DNA of 64,000 nt from positions 20,150 through 84,149 of the forward strand of contig MHMQ01000032.1 in NCBI GenBank assembly GCA_001819395.1, read 5' to 3'. A program made the position numbers and the translations under genes. Below the pieces are notes generated by a model. That model was not told where the DNA came from and searched no databases. It saw only the letters and a list, made by a program, of their open reading frames with translations. This DNA comes from Candidatus Niyogibacteria bacterium RIFCSPLOWO2_01_FULL_45_48. Its GTDB lineage: Bacteria > Patescibacteriota > Minisyncoccia > HO2-45-28. Each line of letters opens with the position of its first letter. Position 1 is the first letter of the stretch. Below, in pieces: positions 25,560-40,890 of the stretch.

Positions 25560-26501
25560 ATGGAAGTCGCGGTTGGTTTTGCCTTAAATCCCGAACTTGT
25601 CGTTGAATACGACAGCAAACAGGGACCGCCCAACGCCAAATTGAAAATTTTGTCCACCGCCGTTCAGACAGCCGGTTCATCGGCCAATGTCGCTACTGCT
25701 CTTCATAAACTCGGCAGGCAGCCACATCTTTTTGGCTTGGTTGGCGCGTACGGCGAATATGTTGAGGATATTTTGCTTAAACATGTTTCGCAATCTTTGG
25801 ATTTTGAATGGACGCCGATTCCCGCGCTTAATCGCACGGGTTTTGCCTTACTGCGTGTTGATCGCGCTAATCCCTCCGAAAAAGTAATTGGACGGAGAGG
25901 CGAGGTTCTTAAAAATAAAACGGAAGAAGGGCGTTGTTTGATTCGCAGTTGTGGTATTCATGATTCTGTCATCCGCGTTGCTACCGGAGTCAGCATTTCC
26001 GAAGTTCCTTTGGCTCTTGCGCTATTTGAGCGGGGCCAAACTATTCTTACGCCAAACGCCGAACTTTTAAATCATCTCGAGGAGTTCCACCGCTTGCTGG
26101 CTCGCACATCTATTCTGGTTTGGAATGAAAACGAAGCTGACCAGTATCTTAGATCGCAAGGCATAAAGAAAACCAGACGTTTTAATATTCACTTCATTGG
26201 TCTCAGAGCTATTATAACGACAATGGGAAGCAGGGGCGGAAAAATTCAGGTTGATGGATGGGCCGAGCGTTTGTTCTCGACTCAAAGGCCGACTGGACGC
26301 ATCTTGAGCACTCAAGGGGCGGGCGACTGGTTTTTGGCCGGATTTATAACGGCCATGCTCGAATCAGGGGAGAGGCTTTCTTCTTTAGCCAATCCGCCGG
26401 AGAGTTTGATGGACTGGTGCGTGTTTGGAGCCAAGGTTGCCGCAAAAAAGCTTTCGTTTTTAGGGTCTGGACAAGGTCCATCGCGAGGAGACATAGAGTA
26501 G
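25560..26501 (+). CDS. PfkB-family carbohydrate kinase (second copy)
   Basis: 313 aa; C-terminal GAGDWFLAGF (PfkB GAGD motif). Confidence 0.6.
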   Translation: MEVAVGFALNPELVVEYDSKQGPPNAKLKILSTAVQTAGSSANVATALHKLGRQPHLFGLVGAYGEYVEDILLKHVSQSLDFEWTPIPALNRTGFALLRVDRANPSEKVIGRRGEVLKNKTEEGRCLIRSCGIHDSVIRVATGVSISEVPLALALFERGQTILTPNAELLNHLEEFHRLLARTSILVWNENEADQYLRSQGIKKTRRFNIHFIGLRAIITTMGSRGGKIQVDGWAERLFSTQRPTGRILSTQGAGDWFLAGFITAMLESGERLSSLANPPESLMDWCVFGAKVAAKKLSFLGSGQGPSRGDIE

Positions 26502-26525
26502 CGCATTTATTTTTAATAAAATAAA

Positions 26526-26547
26526 GCCTCCCAAAAGGGAGGTTTTT
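26526..26547 (+). terminator. rho-independent terminator
   Basis: GCCTCCC-aaaa-GGGAGG followed by TTTTT. Confidence 0.65.
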
Positions 26548-26549
26548 GG

Positions 26550-26578
26550 TTGCCATCTTAAAAATTAAGATTTATCAT
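26550..26578 (+). promoter_or_regulatory. sigma-70-like promoter for sod
   Basis: TTGCCA - 17 nt - TATCAT, 8 nt before ATG 26587 (near-leaderless). Confidence 0.45.
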
Positions 26579-26586
26579 ATTTAAAT

Positions 26587-27213
26587 ATGAAACACGAATT
26601 GCTAAAATTGCCATACGATTATTCGGCGCTTGAGCCATATATTGATTCCAGAACGATGGAGATTCATCACTCCAAGCATCATCAGGCGTATGTTGACAAA
26701 TTAAACGCGGCGCTTGAAGCCCACCTTGATTTGCAGGAAAAATCGGTTGAGGACTTGCTGAAAGATTTAAACTCCGTTCCGGAAGATATTCGAACGGCGG
26801 TTCGCAACCACGGCGGAGGGCATTACAACCACTCTATTTTTTGGACATCAATGGATTCGCCGACAAAGGTTGCTGTGACGGGCGGAAGCCGGGAGCCCGC
26901 AGGCGCGATTGGCGACGCAATAGACAAAGAATTCGGCAGATTTTCTGACTTCAAAGAAAAGTTCGCAGCGGTCGCGGTTGGCGTTTTCGGAAGCGGTTGG
27001 GCGTGGCTTGTGAAAGATAATTTGGGCAAGCTTATAATTATATCAACTCCAAATCAGGATAGCCCCGTGTCGCAAGGCCTTGCGCCGCTTCTTGGCATTG
27101 ATGTCTGGGAGCACGCTTATTATTTGAAATATCAAAATCGCAGGGCGGAGTATGTTGAAAATTGGTGGAATGTTGTGAATTGGGAGGAGGTTGGAAGGAG
27201 GTTTGTGGTATAG
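26587..27213 (+). CDS. sod: Fe/Mn superoxide dismutase
   Basis: 208 aa; [25 protein letters not shown] signatures. Confidence 0.9.
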
Positions 27214-27214
27214 T

Positions 27215-27238
27215 TTGCAAGAATAACAATTCACTTTC
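27215..27238. repeat. left arm of perfect 24-bp inverted repeat TTGCAAGAATAACAATTCACTTTC
   Basis: Exact reverse complement at 27394-27417; arms separated by 155 bp. Confidence 0.9.
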
Positions 27239-27393
27239 TTATGACGGCGCTTCGAATCTTAAAAATTATGGTCGTTTTGTTCGCGAAAAATTAGCGCGAT
27301 ACCCCGTTTGCCCTCTTGCTTCGCAAAAAGTTTTCCGACCGCGATTTTTCGCTCCAAAACTCCCTAATTTTAAAATATTCTCCGCGAGTCAAC

Positions 27394-27417
27394 GAAAGTG
27401 AATTGTTATTCTTGCAA
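27394..27417. repeat. right arm of 24-bp inverted repeat GAAAGTGAATTGTTATTCTTGCAA
   Basis: See 27215-27238. Confidence 0.9.
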
Positions 27418-27423
27418 TAAAAT

Positions 27424-27645
27424 ATGGAATCACGCATAAAAGAAATTTTGGATAAAGAAGTGAGGCCAATGCTCGCGATGCATCTGGGCGATTTGGAGTT
27501 TATGGGATTTGAAAACGGCGTTGTGAAGTTAAGAATGAAAGGCAACTGCCAAGGGTGTCCGTTGAGCATCGTCACACTTAAAGCGGGCATTGAGCGAATT
27601 TTAAAATCCAAAATTCCGGAGGTTCAAAGCGTGGAGGAAGCATAA
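27424..27645 (+). CDS. NifU-like C-terminal domain protein (Nfu-type Fe-S carrier)
   Basis: 73 aa; GNCQGCPLS CxxC motif. Confidence 0.75.
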   Translation: MESRIKEILDKEVRPMLAMHLGDLEFMGFENGVVKLRMKGNCQGCPLSIVTLKAGIERILKSKIPEVQSVEEA

Positions 27646-27698
27646 AAAACAAAAACCCGTCGCTTTGCGGCGGCGGGTTTGAAAATTCTCGCTAAAAA

Positions 27699-33837: not shown

Positions 33838-33878
33838 TTTTTGATATTATTATATAGTATTTTTTGCGCCATTTGCGC

Positions 33879-34014
33879 GAAAGGGGGTCGGGGAAAAGCG
33901 GAAGGGTTTCCCCGCGGAGGAAAACAGACCCGACGCGCGAAGCGGTCGGGGCGCTAGAAACCGAGGGTTTCTAGGGAGCACGAGCGAATCCCTTGAGGTG
34001 AGCGAGCTGCGACG
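33879..34014. repeat. 136-bp GC-rich structured element, copy 1
   Basis: GAAAGGGGGTCGGGG...CTAGAAACCGAGGGTTTCTAG...GCGAGCTGCGACG; identical to copies 2 and 3 except one substitution (A for C in ACAGACCCGAC). Confidence 0.9.
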
Positions 34015-34074
34015 AAAATGGTGCAGAAAGCACACGGTTCATAAAGAAGTCAAAATAACGGCTTAGATTTTTTT

Positions 34075-34145
34075 GGGGGTATGGTTCAATGGTAGAACAT
34101 TGGTCTCCAAAACCAAAGATCAGGGTTCGATTCCTTGTACCCCCG
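34075..34145 (+). tRNA. tRNA-Trp (anticodon CCA), copy 1
   Basis: Acceptor GGGGGTA/TACCCCC, D-stem GTTC/GAAC, anticodon stem TTGGT/ACCAA with loop CTCCAAA, T-arm CAGGG-TTCGATT-CCTTG (one G-U). Confidence 0.85.
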
Positions 34146-34193
34146 CATTGAAAATTTTGGCATCTTTTGATGCCTAGAATTTCAAATTTGATA

Positions 34194-34212
34194 GGTACAA
34201 GGAATCGAACCC
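34194..34212. repeat. inverted 19-nt copy of the tRNA-Trp T-arm/acceptor 3' end
   Basis: GGTACAAGGAATCGAACCC is the exact reverse complement of GGGTTCGATTCCTTGTACC in the upstream tRNA; second copy at 34530-34548. Confidence 0.85.
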
Positions 34213-34214
34213 AC

Positions 34215-34350
34215 GAAAGGGGGTCGGGGAAAAGCGGAAGGGTTTCCCCGCGGAGGAAAACAGCCCCGACGCGCGAAGCGGTCGGGGCGCTAGAAACCGA
34301 GGGTTTCTAGGGAGCACGAGCGAATCCCTTGAGGTGAGCGAGCTGCGACG
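34215..34350. repeat. 136-bp GC-rich element, copy 2
   Basis: Exact 336-bp period with copy 1. Confidence 0.9.
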
Positions 34351-34410
34351 AAAATGGTGCAGAAAGCACACGGTTCATAAAGAAGTCAAAATAACGGCTT
34401 AGATTTTTTT

Positions 34411-34481
34411 GGGGGTATGGTTCAATGGTAGAACATTGGTCTCCAAAACCAAAGATCAGGGTTCGATTCCTTGTACCCCCG
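34411..34481 (+). tRNA. tRNA-Trp (anticodon CCA), copy 2, identical to copy 1
   Basis: Same sequence 336 bp downstream. Confidence 0.85.
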
Positions 34482-34529
34482 CATTGAAAATTTTGGCATC
34501 TTTTGATGCCTAGAATTTCAAATTTGATA

Positions 34530-34548
34530 GGTACAAGGAATCGAACCC
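34530..34548. repeat. second inverted tRNA-Trp 3' fragment
   Basis: GGTACAAGGAATCGAACCC. Confidence 0.85.
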
Positions 34549-34550
34549 AC

Positions 34551-34686
34551 GAAAGGGGGTCGGGGAAAAGCGGAAGGGTTTCCCCGCGGAGGAAAACAGC
34601 CCCGACGCGCGAAGCGGTCGGGGCGCTAGAAACCGAGGGTTTCTAGGGAGCACGAGCGAATCCCTTGAGGTGAGCGAGCTGCGACG
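34551..34686. repeat. 136-bp GC-rich element, copy 3
   Basis: Identical to copy 2. Confidence 0.9.
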
Positions 34687-34730
34687 GGTTCGATTCCCTC
34701 AGCTCCCGCAAATTTAGACGGGCGATTTCT
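34687..34730 (+). pseudogene. decayed 3' remnant of a third tRNA-Trp copy
   Basis: GGTTCGATTCCCTCAGCTCCCGCA aligns to the tRNA-Trp T-loop/acceptor (GGGTTCGATTCCTTGTACCCCCGCA) with substitutions that break the stems; a further TATACCCCCGC fragment follows. Confidence 0.5.
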
Positions 34731-34805
34731 TATACCCCCGCTTTACACCAACTGTCTAATCCTTTAGTGTTTTAACAGATAGTTTTTTGATTTGAGGAGA
34801 CGAGC

Positions 34806-38527: not shown

Positions 38528-39856
38528 ATGACCAAAATTTCCGAATGTCTGAAAAAGAAAATTGGAGAAGAACTTTGGGAAACCTTAAAAAGAATTCGTC
38601 ACGAAAACAAAAAGGGGTTTATTAGAACCCCCGAAGCGAAAGCTGTTTTGTCCCGGCTTGTGGAAATTAATCTGAAGCCGAAAGAATTTGAGGACCTGCT
38701 TGGATACAAGTGGGGAAGTGTCAAAAACGCACTTTCTTATCACCAAATCAAGAAACCAGTTCACAAAGCCGAAGTTGCGGCACACGACATTAATTCCCCC
38801 GAATTTAGCGAAAGATTTTTTAAGTTTGTGCGCAGCAAGACGGTTGTGGAAATGTGCGAGGAATTTAATTTGAGTGACGAACAGGTAAGTACGCTTTTGG
38901 CAAATCCGCCTGCGGAACATGGCATATATAAGGATTCCAGCAGGCACACGGCTACCTACTTCTGTATTTTTAAAGGCAAAAATGTCGAGCCGAAAGATAG
39001 GATTTGGAATTATGTTTTGGCTAAAGACGATGGAGCCGCGGTTGATATCGTGTTTCCGAAAGATATTGGTTGGAAAAAAGAAAGGTCCGGAGATTCGTCT
39101 GAGCGCAGATTGGAAAAAATGCGCATTGTGCCCATGGCCGACATTTGGCTTGGCGACCCTCTTCACGACTCAGCGCTTTTGGACGAGAGAATAGCCTGGA
39201 TTGCCAGAGAGCCGCACATTTTTTGGTTTTTTAACGGAGATGCGATTAAACCCCCGACAGCAAAAGAAATTAAAGACGGCGTGCTGGAAAAACTTTATCT
39301 TGAGTTGAGAACAAAACTTGCGCCGATTTCACACAAGTGGCTTTGGGCGCAAGAAGGGTGTTTTGAGACGAAGTTGCATGCGACCAAAGACGCATTTGAT
39401 CCGATTGACGACCTTTGTGATGAGTGGGATGTGCCATATTTCAGAACTCCGGTTTCCGTCGGCCTTCATTGGGCTGGAAATTTATTTAAGTTTTACTGTA
39501 TTCATGGAAAATCGCAGGCTCAGAAAAAGGGTTCAAAAATCAACGCCATCGCGCGCATCCTTGGTGAAGTGGAATTCAACCATTTTTATGTTATGTCTCA
39601 CATCAAGGATTCGATTTCTAGCAAACAAGTGCGTGTTTCCCAAGACGTGTTGAATTTTGATTTGGCGGAAAAAAAACAATATTTATTCATCACACCCTCT
39701 TTTGTGAAGTACGATCGGTCTCGTGATGCGAAGTGGGGATATCCTCTTCCTGCCAGAGGGCAAGCAAGCTGCGCCTTGTATATAGACGGCGATTATCATT
39801 TTTATTCTTCACCAATAGCCACAGGTCTGGTTGCTGTGGGGGAGGACAACATATGA
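38528..39856 (+). CDS. calcineurin-like metallophosphoesterase paralog with degenerate metal-binding motifs (probable pseudoenzyme) plus unknown N-domain
   Basis: 442 aa; aligns motif-for-motif with next gene: VPMADIWLGD / LVPLSDLQWG, FFNGDAIKP / FLNGDILNN, but GNHE replaced by QEGCFE and GHVHE by SHIKD; RBS AAGGAG 8 nt before ATG. Confidence 0.5.
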   Translation: MTKISECLKKKIGEELWETLKRIRHENKKGFIRTPEAKAVLSRLVEINLKPKEFEDLLGYKWGSVKNALSYHQIKKPVHKAEVAAHDINSPEFSERFFKFVRSKTVVEMCEEFNLSDEQVSTLLANPPAEHGIYKDSSRHTATYFCIFKGKNVEPKDRIWNYVLAKDDGAAVDIVFPKDIGWKKERSGDSSERRLEKMRIVPMADIWLGDPLHDSALLDERIAWIAREPHIFWFFNGDAIKPPTAKEIKDGVLEKLYLELRTKLAPISHKWLWAQEGCFETKLHATKDAFDPIDDLCDEWDVPYFRTPVSVGLHWAGNLFKFYCIHGKSQAQKKGSKINAIARILGEVEFNHFYVMSHIKDSISSKQVRVSQDVLNFDLAEKKQYLFITPSFVKYDRSRDAKWGYPLPARGQASCALYIDGDYHFYSSPIATGLVAVGEDNI

Positions 39857-40890
39857 CCTCGCAAAAATTCACCTTACTTGGAAAAAAATTTGAAGAATTA
39901 ATGAAAAGAGGAATTGTTCCCAAAGAATCTTTACTCAAAGAGTCCGGTTTTTCGGAAGAGCAGATTAAAAAAATGCTTGGCCGCGATGTGGAAGGCGGCC
40001 GCATTTTTGAACAAAGGGTTGAAAAGGAAATTTATTACCGCTTAATCAGAGAAACACCGCCGGTAGTTACTCAGGAGCGCGTTTGGCAATACGCCCAGTG
40101 CGCGGATCGCAGAAAGCCGTATTTCTGGTTTCAATTTCCGAATACCGATTGGAAAAAAATAATTTTGGTTCCTCTTTCCGACCTTCAGTGGGGTTCGGAA
40201 GAATGTGACGTCGCCCAACTTAAAGATTATGTCAAATATATCGGGGAGAATGACCATGTTTTCGCGTTTCTCAACGGAGATATCCTGAATAACGCTTTGC
40301 CGGATTCTCCCGGCGGTTCAATTTTTTGGGATGTGGCGAGACCCCGCGAGCAAGTAAGGACCGTGATTGATTTACTGGCCCCAATCGCTCACAAAATTCT
40401 TTGGGCATTGCCCGGTAATCACGAAGAGCGCACAATCAAGAGGGCAGATATAGATCCTTTGTTCTGGATTTGCCAGAAACTTGGCATTCCTTATTCGGAT
40501 CAGCCAATTTTTGCCGATATTCTTTGGCGGAGCCACCGTTTCAATTTCTATTGTTTTCATGGCATCAGCGGTTCCAGAACTATGGGTGGCAAGTTAAACG
40601 CGGCCATGCGTCCGATTGATTGGACCGAGTTCACGATGTTTTACATAATGGGGCATGTTCATGAACCAATGGGCAACCCTGTTACAAGAAGGTGTGTTCT
40701 TAGGGAGTATGACAGCAAGGGGGGTTTGACCGGCTTGCGGGTTGTTGACAGAGATCAGTATGTGATTATATGCGCGGCTTGGCTGAAGTTTTGGGGAGGT
40801 TACGGCGCAAAGATGGGTTTTTCTCCGCAGTCTCAAGGCGGAACCCCGTGCCTTTTGTATAAAAACGGCGATTACGGAATCTCGGAGTAA
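39853..40890 (+). CDS. calcineurin-like metallophosphoesterase (Mre11/SbcD-type motif set) with ~110-aa N-terminal extension
   Basis: ATG 39853 overlaps previous stop (ATGA), GGAGGA 6 nt upstream; motifs SDLQWG, GDILN, GNHEE, FHGISGS, GHVHEP. Confidence 0.6.
   Translation: MTSQKFTLLGKKFEELMKRGIVPKESLLKESGFSEEQIKKMLGRDVEGGRIFEQRVEKEIYYRLIRETPPVVTQERVWQYAQCADRRKPYFWFQFPNTDWKKIILVPLSDLQWGSEECDVAQLKDYVKYIGENDHVFAFLNGDILNNALPDSPGGSIFWDVARPREQVRTVIDLLAPIAHKILWALPGNHEERTIKRADIDPLFWICQKLGIPYSDQPIFADILWRSHRFNFYCFHGISGSRTMGGKLNAAMRPIDWTEFTMFYIMGHVHEPMGNPVTRRCVLREYDSKGGLTGLRVVDRDQYVIICAAWLKFWGGYGAKMGFSPQSQGGTPCLLYKNGDYGISE

Follow-up and report, generated by a model that had tools for sequence, protein, structure and literature searches.

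A hairpin-forming element of about 200 bp between sod and nfu in Candidatus Niyogibacteria, inverted between two related lineages

We have analyzed a stretch of 64,000 nucleotides (the window) from Candidatus Niyogibacteria RIFCSPLOWO2_01_FULL_45_48, an uncultured member of the CPR/Patescibacteria from Rifle aquifer groundwater. The genomes of this group are highly streamlined, and to our knowledge almost nothing is known of their non-coding regulatory DNA or small mobile elements. Other bacteria are well known to carry long intergenic hairpins that derive from elements with inverted repeats. The locus studied here is the tail of the suf operon, where sufC, sufB, sufD, sufS, nifU-N and a ferredoxin gene are followed by sod and nfu; downstream of nfu lie a convergent NUDIX gene and then htrA and clpB. 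An element of 203 bp, bounded by inverted repeats, occupies the space between sod and nfu. Its parts and the neighboring features are collected in Table 1.

Table 1. Features of the sod-nfu locus, in window coordinates. L069, L057 and L058 are contigs of a related lineage; L008 is a contig of the same strain as the window.
Feature	Position	Strand	Remarks
Best sigma-70-like match upstream of sod, TTGCCA-17-TATCAT	26550-26578	+	Consensus match only
sod, Fe/Mn superoxide dismutase, upstream cistron	26587-27213	+	Pfam Sod_Fe_N and Sod_Fe_C on the identical protein; NCBI name superoxide dismutase, Candidatus Niyogibacteria
Left arm, sod-proximal	27215-27238		Homologous to the L069 arms, with 4-5 differences in 24 positions
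Interior half A (TTATGACGGCGC...), basal stem	27239-27291		Reverse complement adjoins nfu, not sod, in L069, L057 and L058
Apical hairpin part	27292-27343		Diverged between lineages; pairing not kept
Interior half B (...CCGCGAGTCAAC), basal stem	27344-27393		Reverse complement adjoins sod in L069
Right arm, nfu-proximal	27394-27417		Inner edge coincides exactly with the start of contig L008
nfu, NifU C-terminal domain Fe-S carrier, 73 aa, downstream cistron	27424-27645	+	PF01106
GC-rich hairpin after nfu, ACCCGTCGC...GCGGCGGGT, then TTTG	27655-27681	+	Read from the sequence; not flagged by the terminator scan

The initial annotation had described a perfect 24-bp inverted repeat, its match beyond chance, placed tightly between the two genes, and all three statements are borne out. 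The left arm, TTGCAAGAATAACAATTCACTTTC, recurs as its exact reverse complement in the right arm (24/24), across an interior of 155 nt. No arm match arose in 100 dinucleotide-preserving shuffles, and a search with the arm 24-mer allowing up to three mismatches found only these two sites in the 64-kb window. The arm pair is the strongest local inverted repeat of the window, and no further long inverted repeats of the same type were found in the 64 kb. A single base separates the end of the sod ORF from the left arm, and 6 nt separate the end of the right arm from the ATG of nfu. The element is poorer in G+C than its surroundings (39% vs 45% for the window).

The symmetry is not confined to the arms. 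The 155-nt interior is also an imperfect palindrome, its left half being about 70% identical to the reverse complement of its right half with several indels, and the entire element of 203 bp is a quasi-palindrome. As RNA, the element has a predicted folding energy of about −71 kcal/mol; a region of 223 nt that includes it is predicted to form a single long hairpin at −72 kcal/mol (z = −7.9), and the interior alone folds better than its shuffles on both strands. The antisense strand of the window element folds better than the sense strand, at −87.7 vs −70.9 kcal/mol.

Is the element likely to be transcribed? With a promoter-like site before sod and the GC-rich hairpin after nfu, which is probably the end of the transcription unit, sod-hairpin-nfu is the most economical unit. 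We infer from this arrangement that sod, the hairpin and nfu are co-transcribed. The window lineage alone has an inserted gene for a PfkB-family sugar kinase (25560-26542) between those for ferredoxin and SOD; this gene carries its own terminator, a clean hairpin with a T-tract (CCTCCCAAAAGGGAGG TTTTT). In relatives the ferredoxin gene and sod are adjacent or overlapping.

The interior of the element, as judged from its reading frames, is non-coding. The ORFs that cross it either begin in sod or are antisense and overlap nfu. The 79-codon ORF at 27162-27401, which the initial annotation had taken to be probably non-coding, does exist; it begins within sod and has no conserved counterpart in the related contig L069. 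The short internal ORFs of the window and L069 differ in frame and sequence. A small interior protein was considered and rejected on comparing a 32-codon minus-strand ORF of the window with a 37-codon ORF of L069: the first six codons are common to both, after which the frames differ.

Scans for known signals gave little. A consensus scan detected no sigma-70-like promoter on either strand of 27215-27417 or of the corresponding interval of L069 (6623-6833), and no intrinsic terminator was predicted inside the element. No family of Rfam 15 matched the element at the gathering threshold; a permissive scan returned only a trivial plant miRNA-precursor hairpin, at 19 bits against a threshold of 195 bits. 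An integron attC site was also rejected. On reading the sequence, the inner junctions AGTCAAC and GTTGACT each miss the R-box (RYYYAAC / GTTRRRY) by one position, and the flanking genes belong to a conserved operon and are not cassettes. Selection for the RNA of one particular strand was likewise set aside: the folding energies of the two strands lie about 17-21 kcal/mol apart, but mismatch counts are balanced. The G-U and A-C mismatches between the arms of the hairpin number 1 vs 3 in the window and 7 vs 5 in L069, and because these counts are small and balanced no strand can be assigned.

Comparison with relatives shows that the element is an insertion. The sod and nfu genes overlap in the outgroup contigs L013, L014, L059 and L062, and are separated by 43-55 bp in L017, L018, L065 and L068; the 203 bp are therefore an addition to this junction. 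Within the strain itself, nine contigs from NCBI, JGI and ENA, including the record of the window, carry an identical element in the same orientation, one of them with a single N. A tenth contig of the strain (L008) is the one that begins at the right arm. The element is also present in L069 (GCA_964412115.1), the SOD of which is 84% identical to that of the window, with sod and nfu 80-82% identical at the DNA level. There a homologue of 211 nt lies at the identical junctions, TAG T / element / TAGAAT ATG. A homologue at exactly these junctions, between flanks of about 80% identity, means that the element has been inherited vertically. Moreover, the divergence of the element from its L069 counterpart equals that of the flanking genes, and with the same nucleotide junctions this indicates that the inheritance is old. 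The comparison of spacers suggested in the initial annotation had a twofold outcome, giving outgroups that lack the insert and a homologue at the same locus in L069, which is inverted.

The element is inverted between the two lineages. Alignment of the window element with that of L069 gave a score of 214 when one was flipped (162/213 positions identical) and of 74 as it stands, and a profile built from the two sequences scored 217 bits on the minus strand of the window vs 37.5 bits on the plus strand. The arms of L069 match each other at 20/24 positions, with a longest perfect run of 9 nt, and because they are imperfect the orientation in L069 is unambiguous. On the sense strand 3 of their 4 mismatches are G-U. 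Two Logan contigs of the L069 lineage (L057 and L058) end inside the element and have the same flipped orientation; in L058 the identity is 35/40 to the flipped window sequence vs 13/40 to the sequence as it stands. In all, nine contigs are of the window type and three of the L069 type, with one orientation in each lineage. We rejected an artefact of assembly as the source of the flip: the L069 arms are imperfect, and the window type is identical in k141 MEGAHIT, JGI and NCBI contigs. The simplest explanation would be inversion in situ by recombination between the arms. When the arms are perfect a flip of the interior is the same as the reverse complement of the whole element, and inversion in situ is therefore scarless. 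The perfect match of the two window arms (24/24) is best explained as the footprint of recent homogenization in such an event.

We also examined whether pairing in the hairpin has been retained as the sequence diverged. The minimum free energy structure of the window sequence was projected on L069, and the number of broken pairs expected was obtained by simulating substitutions. (Pair counts from RNAalifold alone, which gave 0 broken pairs, were set aside, since RNAalifold looks for a structure that suits both sequences and its counts are therefore biased.) In the basal stem (alignment columns 1-74 and their partners, that is, 27215-27291 with 27344-27417 in the window) only 3 of 61 pairs are broken, where 11.0 ± 2.1 are expected (P about 2e-4). 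Excluding the arms leaves 38 pairs with 2 broken vs 6.2 expected (P = 0.01). The apical part behaves differently from the basal stem: 9 of its 16 pairs are broken vs 8.0 expected (P = 0.79). Evidently the basal pairing has been preserved.

The changes themselves are of the kind that retains pairing. Eighteen positions of the basal stem have changed, including five double compensatory changes and four one-sided changes that remain G-U; a sixth double compensatory change sits in the apical part. In the true register 92% of cells are paired, vs 42-49% in controls in which the partner strand was slid. The tip of the L069 hairpin differs and is GC-rich (GCCCCGCAGCTGCGGGGC). The basal part has diverged by 15-17%, vs 18-20% for the flanking genes. 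The bulges, internal loops and mismatches that set half A apart from half B are common to both lineages. The divergence of the two halves must therefore predate the split of the lineages, which makes wholesale gene conversion an unlikely cause of the paired changes. Short conversion tracts (concerted evolution) could mimic selection. The covariation comes from two full-length sequences and two partial ones, and the preservation of the basal pairs by compensatory changes is consequently to be read as suggestive, not conclusive. It favors the regulatory or structural stem-loop that the initial annotation had offered as one option.

A different palindrome lies upstream of nfu in sister lineages. 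The window, L069, L011 and L012 represent four roughly equidistant lineages of one clade (HtrA identity 84-87%). Upstream of nfu in L011 (1-45) and L012 (1-130), whose HtrA is 85% identical to that of the window, is an unrelated palindrome of about 105 nt (z = −4.9) with the core CAAACTAAGTTTT...AAAGCTTAGTTTG; both contigs end inside it. Kinship between this palindrome and the window element was considered and rejected, no similarity being found. Palindromic insertions may be particularly frequent upstream of nfu, and the L011/L012 palindrome could point to a hotspot that attracts selfish palindromes, without any selected function. Neither this palindrome nor the inversion had been foreseen in the initial annotation.

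Searches for further copies were negative within the DNA covered. No second copy was found in the 64-kb window, to which the copy count in the source genome refers and which is about 10% of that genome, or in 396 kb of related DNA. An exact 20-mer scan of GTDB species genomes gave just one unpaired match, in an Omnitrophota contig, and an exact 18-mer scan of metagenome contigs gave 37 unpaired matches with no extension and no partner arm; both scans missed the source genome itself. A conserved 21-mer of the interior together with a degenerate arm gave nothing in the viral contigs of IMG/VR. Inspection of the translations of the 73 ORFs of the window, with Pfam searches on 10 ambiguous ones, revealed no transposase or recombinase; the translations have the look of housekeeping proteins. 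The flanking target-site duplication that the initial annotation had proposed to look for is absent, the flanks being ...ATAGT and TAAAAT.... The outer TTGCAA of the arms is self-complementary and can be read as a 6-bp direct repeat. Taking it as a 6-bp target-site duplication around 18-bp repeats was rejected, as the ends in L069 (TTCCAA / TTGAAG) do not support it.

Is the element, then, a MITE, as first proposed? It has terminal inverted repeats at both ends, is small and non-coding and has no transposase of its own. That part of the proposal which made it an insertion with terminal inverted repeats, specific to certain lineages, stands; a second copy, a target duplication and a transposase did not appear in the searches made. 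A single copy kept at this locus in all relatives had been named as what would speak for a regulatory structure and not a mobile element. What we find goes part of the way there, with no second copy and a homologue at the same junctions in L069. An active or recently active MITE would be a non-autonomous element, mobilized in trans by way of its 24-bp terminal repeats, with copies at other loci. The anatomy suits this well (about 200 bp, low G+C, intergenic), some lineages have the element and others do not, the unrelated palindrome of the sister lineages suggests that palindromes are mobile in such genomes, and some prokaryotic MITEs are present in as few as one copy per genome (PMC10969869). 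However, the element is the sole copy in the window and the related DNA, the public exact-word and degenerate-arm scans yielded only unpaired chance matches, its immediate flanks (AGT and TAA) are not duplicated, no transposase is encoded in the window, and the inheritance at the same junctions in L069 is old. Activity as a MITE is quite unlikely. A reversible switch, or inverton, would make use of the same anatomy in another way, with the arms as recombination sites and flipping of the 155-bp segment turning nfu (or antisense transcription into sod) on and off within the population. The arms are indeed perfect and enclose a short segment that lies just before a gene, both orientations occur among related lineages at identical junctions, and the break of contig L008 of the window strain coincides exactly with the inner edge of the right arm, although this last observation is ambiguous. 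In addition, a TTGACT just inside half B points to nfu in L069 and to sod in the window. Its spacer to the nearest −10-like hexamer is only 14 nt, however, and there is no sigma-70-like promoter in the element in either orientation. Nor does the 64-kb window encode a serine or tyrosine recombinase among the ORFs inspected. The orientation looks fixed in each lineage (nine window-strain contigs one way, three of the L069 type the other), the L069 arms carry four mismatches and no long perfect run, a quasi-palindromic interior means that a flip changes little, and the gene to be regulated would be a housekeeping Fe-S carrier. We regard an inverton as very unlikely, and there is a slimmer chance still for a switch in which a distant recombinase, or RecA acting on the arms, flips the segment in this CPR bacterium and so toggles nfu or an antisense sod RNA. 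If true, Patescibacteria would have their first described inverton, one acting on oxidative-stress and Fe-S housekeeping genes, not on surface structures.

The remaining alternative dispenses with function altogether. The element would be the relic of an old foldback insertion that has been tolerated, its arms kept similar by occasional recombination or conversion, which would also be the source of the inversion. A relic would explain why the apical part drifts freely and why the basal part has diverged only slightly less than the flanking genes have; that the arms are perfect in the window but match at 20/24 in L069 fits sporadic homogenization, and the outgroups fare well without any spacer. 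Against this, the compensatory changes fall in interior helices whose bulges and mismatches are kept in both lineages, a pattern that conversion of short tracts explains poorly, and broken pairs remain below expectation when the arms are left out. Furthermore, CPR genomes are streamlined, and yet the element has been kept over about 20% DNA divergence. A functionless relic is in our view unlikely.

The reading that we prefer, to which we would give about an even chance, is that of a single-copy hairpin insertion of about 200 bp, vertically inherited, kept as an orientation-independent structure in the sod-nfu transcript and inverted once. The ancestor of a small Candidatus Niyogibacteria clade would have acquired a quasi-palindrome of this size at the sod-nfu junction, and this may well have originated as a MITE-like or foldback insertion. 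It would be transcribed within the sod-nfu message, forming a long hairpin of some 60 basal pairs, and selection would keep the basal pairing and not the sequence or the tip. A hairpin stays a hairpin when reverse-complemented, which would explain why both orientations are tolerated; one lineage would then have flipped the element in situ through recombination between the arms. As an orientation-independent intercistronic RNA structure the hairpin might uncouple the formerly overlapping sod and nfu, for example by providing a double-stranded site for RNase III-type processing, or for stability, immediately upstream of the nfu start; alternatively it might insulate the translation of nfu from that of sod. 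The uninterrupted stem comprises 24 perfect pairs in the window and 21 consecutive pairs including G-U in L069, so that both have the approximately 20 bp or more of continuous helix taken to characterize an RNase III-type stem. A stem of 21-24 pairs that ends six bases before the start codon of nfu is therefore a natural candidate for RNase III-type processing or insulation, a role that we propose by analogy with known elements.

The closest of these, and probably the best model of how the sod-nfu element is likely to act, are the Correia elements (CREE/nemis) of Neisseria. They are MITEs of similar size (about 100-155 bp), with terminal inverted repeats of about 26 bp, and are intergenic or gene-adjacent; when co-transcribed, the repeats form a double-stranded RNA stem, and the transcribed hairpins are bound or cleaved by RNase III, altering the expression of adjacent genes (PMC2649163, PMC10969869). 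Correia elements differ in that they have many copies per genome, a duplicated TA target, IHF sites and promoter-forming ends, whereas the sod-nfu element is known in one copy, inherited at one locus, and no duplication or promoter-like ends were detected. Elements of the ERIC/IRU and REPIN type resemble it in another respect, the whole element being an imperfect palindrome that folds as a single hairpin along its length. Where ERIC copies are transcribed they affect the decay of the mRNA (PMC10969869), and REPINs are hairpin-forming doublets (PMC3116915). These families have no sequence similarity to the sod-nfu element; their copies number from tens to hundreds, and REPINs are served by a RAYT transposase of their own. 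Neither feature was found here. Invertons such as fimS and the Mpi-controlled promoters of Bacteroides likewise consist of a short segment between inverted repeats, placed just before a gene and found in both orientations (PMC11602134 for the definition). There, however, the segment holds a promoter, and a site-specific recombinase flips it within the population. For the sod-nfu element neither promoter nor recombinase was found, the orientation is fixed per lineage in all assemblies seen, and the segment is palindromic.

In the literature that we searched, no MITEs or invertons have been described in Patescibacteria. The sod-nfu element is a variant of the intergenic inverted-repeat hairpin element and lies outside any named family, because the multiplicity and target duplication of MITEs and the promoter and recombinase of invertons were not found in the DNA searched. 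It resembles a structural element that has been domesticated, not a transposon that is still active. A hairpin of about 200 bp kept over some 20% divergence between formerly overlapping stress genes is probably a selfish palindrome that has become a fixed part of an operon. The finding is modest in itself; it offers a testable case for intercistronic processing of the RNase III type, or for DNA inversion, in the CPR.

Several other features were noted at this locus in relatives. All that L067 (300-365) retains of sod is a stretch of about 14 codons from the 3′ end (...WNVANWEEVEKRY), immediately before nfu and preceded by an unrelated ORF; sod has apparently been deleted or replaced there. In L065, a more distant relative, the 55-bp sod-nfu spacer (2446-2500) contains a terminator-like hairpin; its stem is 11 bp long (TTGTCATAAAC-TTA-GTTTATGACAA), and a T-rich tract comes after it. 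The heptamer TTATGAC occurs both here and at the inner junction of the window element, probably by coincidence. The suf operon of L069 (1905-5551) is interrupted by several small unannotated ORFs and by an HTH_5/ArsR-like regulator between sufS and nifU-N, with two unknown ORFs before the ferredoxin gene; these extra ORFs are absent from the window.

Elsewhere in the window, two adjacent and overlapping ORFs of 442 and 385 aa (38528-40890) resemble paralogues; one has a weak match to calcineurin-like phosphoesterases and the other is without a Pfam match. At 33878-34686 lies a tandem repeat with a unit of 336 bp, present in 2.4 copies of 99-100% identity. Each unit contains a tRNA-Trp(CCA) gene (34075-34146 and 34411-34482) and an inverted 19-nt copy of the 3′ end of the tRNA (34194-34212 and 34530-34548), and two more degenerate copies of the tRNA 3′ end are found at 34686-34742. 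The repeat could represent the scars of an integration site or a real amplification of the tRNA gene.
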